Assembly (NCBI GenBank): GCA_050298595.1
Contig: JBNKUM010000006.1
Span: 1-40,351 of the forward strand
Length of the DNA: 40,351 bases
From: Gammaproteobacteria bacterium
Lineage (GTDB): Bacteria; Pseudomonadota; Gammaproteobacteria; GCA-001735895
Direction of reading: 5' to 3'
How positions within the stretch are numbered: the first letter of the stretch is position 1; each line of letters opens with the position of its first letter. Under the pieces are notes generated by a model, which saw only the letters and a list, made by a program, of their open reading frames with translations, was not told the DNA's origin and did not search any database. This document shows, piece after piece, positions 1 through 593 of this stretch. Made by a program: the position numbers and the translations under genes.

Positions 1-354
1 AATACCAAACCAGAATAAAAGATCATTAATAGTTTCAAGCTGAGGGGAAGCGGTATTTTCTTCGCTAGTGGGTGCATTACCCTGCAAAGAATATGCAACA
101 ATTTTTGGCTTTTCTGGTGTCCATTTAAACCAGTCACGTAAAAGTGGGTGCTGGGCAAGAAAGTAAGATATATCGGCCTGAGCAGGCTTTACAGGAAAAG
201 CAAATAGAAGCTGATTTACCAACTGGTCAATATCATCGGGCAAGTTATCAATAGCAATAATCGCATTCGACAACAGGGTTGTGTAATGCCAGTCCGCACT
301 GTGAAACCAGTAGCTTAATTGATGAGCGAAATAACTTCGCTGCCGACCTTTCAA
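1..354 (-). CDS. Partial ORF (N-terminal 118 aa, runs off the window), probable retron-type reverse transcriptase
   Basis: Manual translation: TTG at 354 with GGAGG 5 nt upstream, open to position 1: MKGRQRSYFAHQLSYWFHSADWHYTTLL...FPVKPAQADISYFLAQHPLLRDWF...SPQLETINDLLFWFGI. The last segment resembles the LxTxxDLAxWLGL helix that precedes the RT core in long-N-terminus retron RTs. It directly follows an msr/msd-like structure. No catalytic motif is visible in the window. Confidence 0.7.
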   Translation of the reverse strand, partial: MKGRQRSYFAHQLSYWFHSADWHYTTLLSNAIIAIDNLPDDIDQLVNQLLFAFPVKPAQADISYFLAQHPLLRDWFKWTPEKPKIVAYSLQGNAPTSEENTASPQLETINDLLFWFGI

Positions 355-408
355 AACACCCTCCGTGGATTAAGCTGAATCTGAGGTTTCAGGTTTGAAT
401 CAATAAAA

Positions 409-557
409 AACGGACACCCAACTCAGAATCCGCATGAACTATCTTGCACGCAGTGCAACAACGTTCCTGCCGCGTTAAGCAAGTAACCACTTTACCCTGG
501 GGTAGCCCCAGAGCCCCATAAACACGAGGTTTATCGGCCAATACTTGGGTATCCGTT
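409..557 (-). ncRNA. Candidate retron msr-msd non-coding RNA
   Basis: Terminal inverted repeats 545-557 and 409-421 pair over 13 bp on the minus-strand RNA (AACGGAUACCCAA / UUGGGUGUCCGUU, one G-U). Unpaired G on each inner side (544 and 422). Two short hairpins (516-537, 495-513), then a longer interrupted hairpin (432-470, core ttgcac-gca-gtgcaa at 444-458). Confidence 0.75.
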
Positions 558-564
558 CCTTAGT

Positions 565-593
565 AAGGTATGCAAATATAAACCAAAAATCAA
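565..593 (-). promoter_or_regulatory. Candidate sigma70 promoter for the retron ncRNA
   Basis: TTGATT (593-588), 17 nt, TACCTT (570-565). This would place the start site at about 558-557, the first base of the 5' inverted repeat. Weak consensus match. Confidence 0.35.

Follow-up and report, generated by a model that had tools for sequence, protein, structure and literature searches.

What would a retron do without a toxin to hold in check? Nearly all studied retrons restrain a toxic effector; effector-less retron lineages are catalogued yet unexplained. We analysed a stretch of 40,351 nucleotides (the window) that forms the start of contig C6 in a 5.49 Mb assembly of 119 contigs. At its very beginning a sequence-only reading had proposed an unannotated retron, with many retrons known to act in anti-phage defence. 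We conclude that the locus is, with high probability, a stand-alone retron composed of an msr/msd non-coding RNA (404-562, minus strand) and a reverse transcriptase (RT) gene that begins about 50 nt downstream. The locus is a clean case for study: the cassette is compact, with an RNA of ~160 nt and a 433-aa RT, and its chromosomal position is fixed within one genus. Naturally occurring alleles whose RNAs differ by paired changes are a further asset for studying msDNA production and role, and small retrons that lack an effector are also attractive for genome editing, where they could supply single-stranded DNA.

On the minus strand, the genes that we read as rnr and rlmB are followed by a 235-nt spacer (355-589) and then by an ORF with a TTG start (Table 1). 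The same rlmB/rnr order recurs in the genomes G075 (locus L012) and G071 (locus L009). The structured RNA starts ~28 nt past the rlmB stop codon, and the upstream hexamer of a promoter-like element overlaps this stop codon. Both hexamers and their spacing are conserved in five copies from the genus, and G073 has TTGACC-16-TAAAGT instead. A scan for sigma-70 promoters and terminators returned nothing near the RNA on the minus strand, the promoter read by eye lying below the scanner's threshold. Downstream of the RNA, a ribosome-binding site and a TTG ORF about 55 nt away had been claimed; we located both, with the TTG 54 nt past the core of the a2 arm and the GGAGG kept in the genus alignment. 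The ORF remains open for 118 codons up to the contig start and then leaves the contig. On the plus strand, just past the start of the rnr reading, lies an 84-nt tRNA with a long variable arm (3757-3840; Rfam tRNA, 54.4 bits). It was the only match in an Rfam scan of 1-4200 at E <= 1, which returned no family for the retron RNA.

Table 1. Features of the retron locus and its flanks, in window coordinates.
Feature	Coordinates	Strand	Basis
Gene read as rnr, upstream of the rlmB reading	1327-3627	-	translation alone; context, outside the retron
Flanking gene read as rlmB	590-1327	-	translation alone; context, outside the retron
Promoter-like element: TTGATT (588-593), 17-nt spacer, TACCTT (565-570)	565-593	-	read by eye, inference only
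a1 arm of terminal inverted repeat, core 545-557	545-562	-	repeat search, fold, pair counts
Unpaired G beside a1, predicted 2'-OH priming (branching) G	544	-	sequence; role inferred from retron biology
msr, two hairpins (515-537 and 494-514), the second with a nearly invariant GGGG-loop-CCCC stem top	494-537	-	fold
msd region, long interrupted hairpin with upper part 432-470, predicted msDNA template	422-481	-	fold, consensus fold, helices 6-12
a2 arm of terminal inverted repeat, core 409-421	404-421	-	repeat search, fold
Ribosome-binding site GGAGG, 5 nt ahead of the TTG	360-364	-	read from sequence; kept in genus alignment
Retron RT, first 118 codons, TTG start 352-354	1-354	-	ORF list; gene cut by contig start

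The orientation of the RNA follows from its terminal repeats. As the sequence-only reading had stated, and as direct reading confirms, plus-strand positions 545-557 (TTGGGTATCCGTT) and 409-421 (AACGGACACCCAA) are complementary at 12 of 13 positions, and the one exception, A551 facing C415, can pair (as U-G) on the minus strand only. In a repeat search, each arm grows to 18 nt (404-421 paired with 545-562, 83% complementarity). At the inner stem ends, plus-strand C544 and C422 read as G on the minus strand, which bears out the opposing Gs of the sequence-only reading. Folding the minus strand of 400-565 gave -70.1 kcal/mol (z -5.75), a value that none of 200 shuffles equalled. The fold contains the a1/a2 stem, the two short hairpins and the long interrupted hairpin (421-480) that had been noticed, whereas the plus-strand fold is much poorer (-49.4 kcal/mol, z -3.87). 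Metatranscriptome run X13 yielded two 151-nt contigs in this region (489-639 and 709-859), which are not evidence of transcription or of RNA ends; gaps in the cover of this stretch in runs X13 and X5 carry no meaning.

This RNA recurs beside related RT genes. In four other genomes of the genus, the RT is found at 92, 91, 78 and 52% identity, with the RNA upstream in all four, and in the 52% copy the changes in a1/a2 and in the second msr hairpin are fully compensated. A contig scan of genomes with the single protein gave 3 loci only, and among 400 sampled and scored genomes of the class there were 2 matches at E <= 1e-60 beyond the window's genome. A metagenome scan with the family alignment gave 510 relatives, from which 80 loci were kept. 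The relatives come from Pseudomonadota, plus soil and actinobacterial contigs. A covariance model (R1) built from six genus copies was then run on 84 loci outside this set, namely the 80 metagenome loci and L011, L014, L015 and L016. It matched on the RT strand at E <= 0.01 in 76 of them (RTs 35-50% identical), two of these matches being cut by a contig end. Of the eight loci left unmatched, L018, L022, L025 and L032 have little or no upstream DNA; L011, L014, L037 and L073 do have upstream DNA, and these four, which include a Saccharothrix scaffold (L014), could have an msr/msd of another family, such as the other 'outgroup' type. In the window's own genome, R1 found two copies only.

The RNA copies vary in the manner expected of a maintained structure. 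In an alignment of 74 rows, which was fitted to the model and therefore favours structure, and which takes in one wrong-strand row of L003, 92.1% of cells pair, compared with 41-51% when the partners are slid. Compensatory changes on both sides occur in 49 of the 53 pairs, and none of 500 shuffles of the 74 rows reached any of five measures. All 17 pairs of the a1/a2 helix show such changes. Helix 5 is 99.8% paired, with G150, G152, G153, C157 and C160 invariant, as is the top of the second msr hairpin. The column of G544, directly after a1, holds a G in 64 of the 74 rows. Covariation upstream of homologues, which had been put forward as a check of the retron reading, is thus present in the same structure. 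Because the structure recurs with covariation beside homologous RT genes, it is far beyond chance, and the comparison of loci indicates that the structured RNA is a conserved partner of the RT.

A separate observation concerns the msd stem. Across columns 227-290 of alignment A5 (window about 432-470), several positions are conserved in sequence though the RTs are only 35-50% identical. Such conservation is unusual for a region often called variable.

To identify the enzyme, we turned to contig C119 of the same assembly, where a second allele comprises the entire ORF (433 aa). The window's 118 codons are 84% identical in protein sequence to residues 1-118 of this C119 RT. The RT motifs are read from the C119 allele and are absent from the window's own 118 codons; the window allele would continue into a contig common to both alleles in sequencing run X1. 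The C119 RT matches Pfam RVT_1 at 2e-24. Its strongest PADLOC profile is RT_other (5.8e-124), which carries no description, followed by RT_outgroup, labelled retron (6.8e-118), RT_XIII (5.3e-88) and then further retron RTs. The RT_outgroup match spans positions 13-406 of the 407 in the profile, and that of RT_XIII is limited to residues 99-429. Matches to NCBIfam retron models fall short of the cut-offs (208.6 bits vs a cut-off of 235). In a PDB sequence search, 14 of 15 matches were named retron RTs, with Ec86 the best (2.8e-31). Likewise, an AlphaFold model of the full RT (pLDDT 87.2) retrieved only retron RTs at Foldseek ranks 1-17, Ec86 again being best (3.8e-20). The search against retron RT profiles that the sequence-only reading had called for therefore returned matches at both top ranks, and these sequence and model comparisons support the assignment as a retron-type reverse transcriptase. 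Together with the fold and the recurrence of the RNA with covariation, the RT profiles support the retron reading as a whole.

The motifs expected in the continuation of the ORF, YADD, NAxxH and VTG, were found in part. The catalytic RYADD lies at residues 308-312 of the C119 RT and is invariant in 32 relatives. [quoted passage not shown] Here, HASKH (198-202) aligns over NATPH of Ec86; H198 and H202 are invariant in the 32 relatives and A199 nearly so. The lineage thus has HAxxH and not NAxxH, with N replaced by H throughout. For region Y, the same authors give VTG in RT7, with G the most conserved (PMC7736814); the C119 RT has KLVG over KVTG of Ec86, and VTG or LTG occurs in relatives, with G359 invariant among the 32. 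For the RT gene, dN/dS amounts to 0.12-0.17 over the core and 0.27-0.58 over the N-terminal part, compared with 0.02-0.04 for rlmB, all from small counts, and these ratios indicate that the RT gene is under purifying selection.

Contig C6 starts within the RT gene because two alleles coexist between collapsed identical flanks. Positions 12944-13643 of C119 are 93% identical to window 1-700, with full identity over the first 45 bases and again from about 590 onward. Run X1 contains the two alleles of window 46-589 (C119/L003 12989-13532) as separate short contigs. Their depths are about 28-29 for the C119 type and 6-10 for the window type, with about 31 for the common flanks, a ratio of roughly 3-5 to 1 between the alleles. 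Both alleles lie between shared flanks in this run, and one flanking contig, 4537 nt long, connects at window 1-45; the end of C6 is therefore an assembly fork between two alleles and not a gene truncation. The window allele also has close counterparts elsewhere. Its RNA spacer (355-589) is 99.1% identical to that of G075 (L012) and the N-terminal part of its RT 97.7% identical to that of G074 (L008), whereas its rlmB is only 93.4-93.5% identical to rlmB of G075 and G074; dS between the window and these two genomes is 0.07 for the retron allele vs 0.30 for rlmB. Because the retron allele is nearer to the alleles of other species than the adjacent rlmB is, these values suggest that retron alleles have been exchanged between species by recombination.

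These data bear on two accounts in which the window would hold no retron at work. That the window copy is a dead remnant, with a truncated RT gene and an RNA that has ceased to function, would explain why the window holds 118 codons only. We regard this as very improbable: the break sits at the contig end, inside the 45 bases identical in both alleles, the 4537-nt contig joins exactly there with both alleles present, and the 118 codons are open, with 3 non-synonymous and 5 synonymous changes relative to G074. Still more remote is the idea that the hairpins have nothing to do with the RT and serve, for example, as an rlmB terminator or as the leader of a downstream operon. The short distance between the rlmB stop codon and the RNA would be in keeping with it, but the covariance-model matches and the pair counts already contradict it: the same RNA precedes homologous RT genes in the 76 matched loci amid unrelated neighbours, and the scan found no terminator-like site on the minus strand.

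We next consider whether the retron has a partner gene. ORFs of at least 70 aa within about 2.5 kb of the RT were clustered across 88 loci, of which 65 have at least 1 kb of DNA downstream and 63 at least 1 kb upstream. No recurrent neighbour emerged; the commonest non-RT cluster, a generic response regulator, occurs in 5 of the 88. Downstream ORFs of 25-120 aa are each shared by at most 3 of 76 loci. The gap between the RT and rpsF in G075 is only 255 bp. Neither an accessory effector gene nor an effector domain fused to the RT, the mark of tripartite retron defence systems (types I-XIII), was found in these searches. One candidate, a 185-aa ORF between RT and rpsF in G073 (L010, 3013-3570, plus strand) with a weak HTH_3 match (20.5 bits vs a cut-off of 23), was rejected as a type-VI-like accessory gene, as only a 69-aa remnant of its C-terminal part is left on C119 (L003, 11510-11719, minus strand) and it is absent in G075. 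Separately, in G071 (L009) the RT is directly followed by an ORF of 320 aa on the opposite strand (3017-3979, minus strand), which matches no Pfam family and was unseen beside the other copies examined. Because no effector was found, the usual retron defence mechanism cannot be assumed, and the anti-phage role that the sequence-only reading implied is weaker here for the same reason.

Mestre et al. 2020 defined 11 retron RT clades and noted that clade 11 and one branch of clade 2 contain stand-alone (msr-msd)-RT cassettes (PMC7736814). In the SPIRE survey, clade11-A/B were detected with the Mestre 'OutgroupA/B' msr/msd models, had no recurrent accessory domain and were rated as being of low novelty (PMC13712802). 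In a census preprint, RT-DNA production is intermediate for clades other than 2, 9, 10, 3 and 4 (PMC10849725). A literature search for a function of stand-alone or clade 11 retrons returned only the surveys PMC7736814 and PMC13712802.

The RT lineage, with its helical N-terminal domain and no accessory gene, most likely corresponds to clade 11 ('outgroup') of Mestre et al. 2020. This assignment equates PADLOC RT_outgroup with clade 11 from the names, with RT_other scoring higher, and a placement in A or B would be equally tentative. As in the stand-alone cassettes of that clade, the msr/msd RNA immediately precedes a retron RT and no accessory gene recurs; the locus is therefore filed among clade 11-type cassettes, which are already catalogued and functionally unstudied. 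As a retron without a partner toxin gene, it is an additional member of this known type rather than the founder of a new one.

Comparison with better-known systems places the locus more closely. Ec86 (Retron-Eco1, type II-A3) has the same order of a1, G, msr hairpins, msd hairpin, a2 and RT, and is the closest solved relative both by sequence and by fold. YADD is common to both RTs, and the VTG of Ec86 aligns with LVG here. Ec86 has an effector gene, however, whereas the window retron has none. The C119 RT also differs from that of Ec86 in an extra ~100-aa N-terminal helical domain, in a 21-aa insertion before QGAPSSP and in having HAxxH for NAxxH. Type XIII (the Mx162/Mx65 group, clade 10) supplied the third-best PADLOC profile, but the N-terminal domain is not in common. 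Type XIII retrons are vertically inherited according to Mestre et al. (PMC7736814), which resembles the fixed chromosomal site of the window retron in one genus. They are, on the other hand, linked to a SWIM/winged-helix gene and an ARM-repeat gene, whereas the window retron has no recurring neighbour.

Studied retrons suggest how the locus might work. The RNA and the RT gene would be transcribed together, either from a weak promoter that overlaps the rlmB stop codon or by read-through from rlmB. The a1 and a2 arms would pair, and the RT would bind the msr hairpins, prime from the 2'-OH of G544 and copy the msd hairpin from 422/423. The expected product is a branched RNA-DNA molecule whose single-stranded DNA would be roughly 60-70 nt long and read as the plus strand, with both start and length being predictions. 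In orientation, in the G at 544 and in the direction predicted for the msDNA, the locus agrees with the sequence-only reading.

We also weighed the possibility that a retron-like RT and its RNA do not make classical multicopy msDNA at all. The RT might instead reverse transcribe only upon a trigger, as reported for type VI, or the RNA might be used in some other reaction. There is no effector here for an msDNA to sequester, the msd stem is partly conserved in sequence to an unusual degree across the family, and the census preprint reports retron subsets without detectable RT-DNA (PMC10849725). We nevertheless give this account a slim chance, as the a1/a2 stem, the conserved G after a1 and the msd hairpin reproduce the exact priming geometry of msDNA-producing retrons, and the RT core can be aligned along its length to the RT of Ec86. 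For the stand-alone retron that we favour, our guess is a cellular role in defence or surveillance, with output through the N-terminal domain or a partner encoded elsewhere.

The N-terminal domain is the part of the RT gene that the window itself holds: its 118 codons correspond to a clade-specific helical domain. Residues 1 to about 100 form five helices in the model, an arrangement absent from Ec86. No Pfam family matches the domain above its cut-off (the PqqD match at 0.029 is noise), and an atlas search with residues 1-105 returned one unnamed cluster at 0.79, under the lead level. Modelled alone, from 7 sequences, the domain reached a pLDDT of 61, compared with ~90 for the same residues in the full-length model. 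It is tempting to see in this ~100-aa domain a built-in output or sensor module, such that the non-coding RNA and RT would make up a complete two-part system serving defence or a domesticated cellular task. We hold this to be a rather doubtful proposal, although it would fit the fast evolution of the domain together with the RNA, the presence of two alleles in one population, and interspecies allele exchange at a fixed position flanked by housekeeping genes. Between the end of the RNA and the codon that aligns with residue 104 downstream lie 259-393 nt (median 320) in 71 of 72 loci, and the N-terminal domain and the spacing are therefore family-wide.
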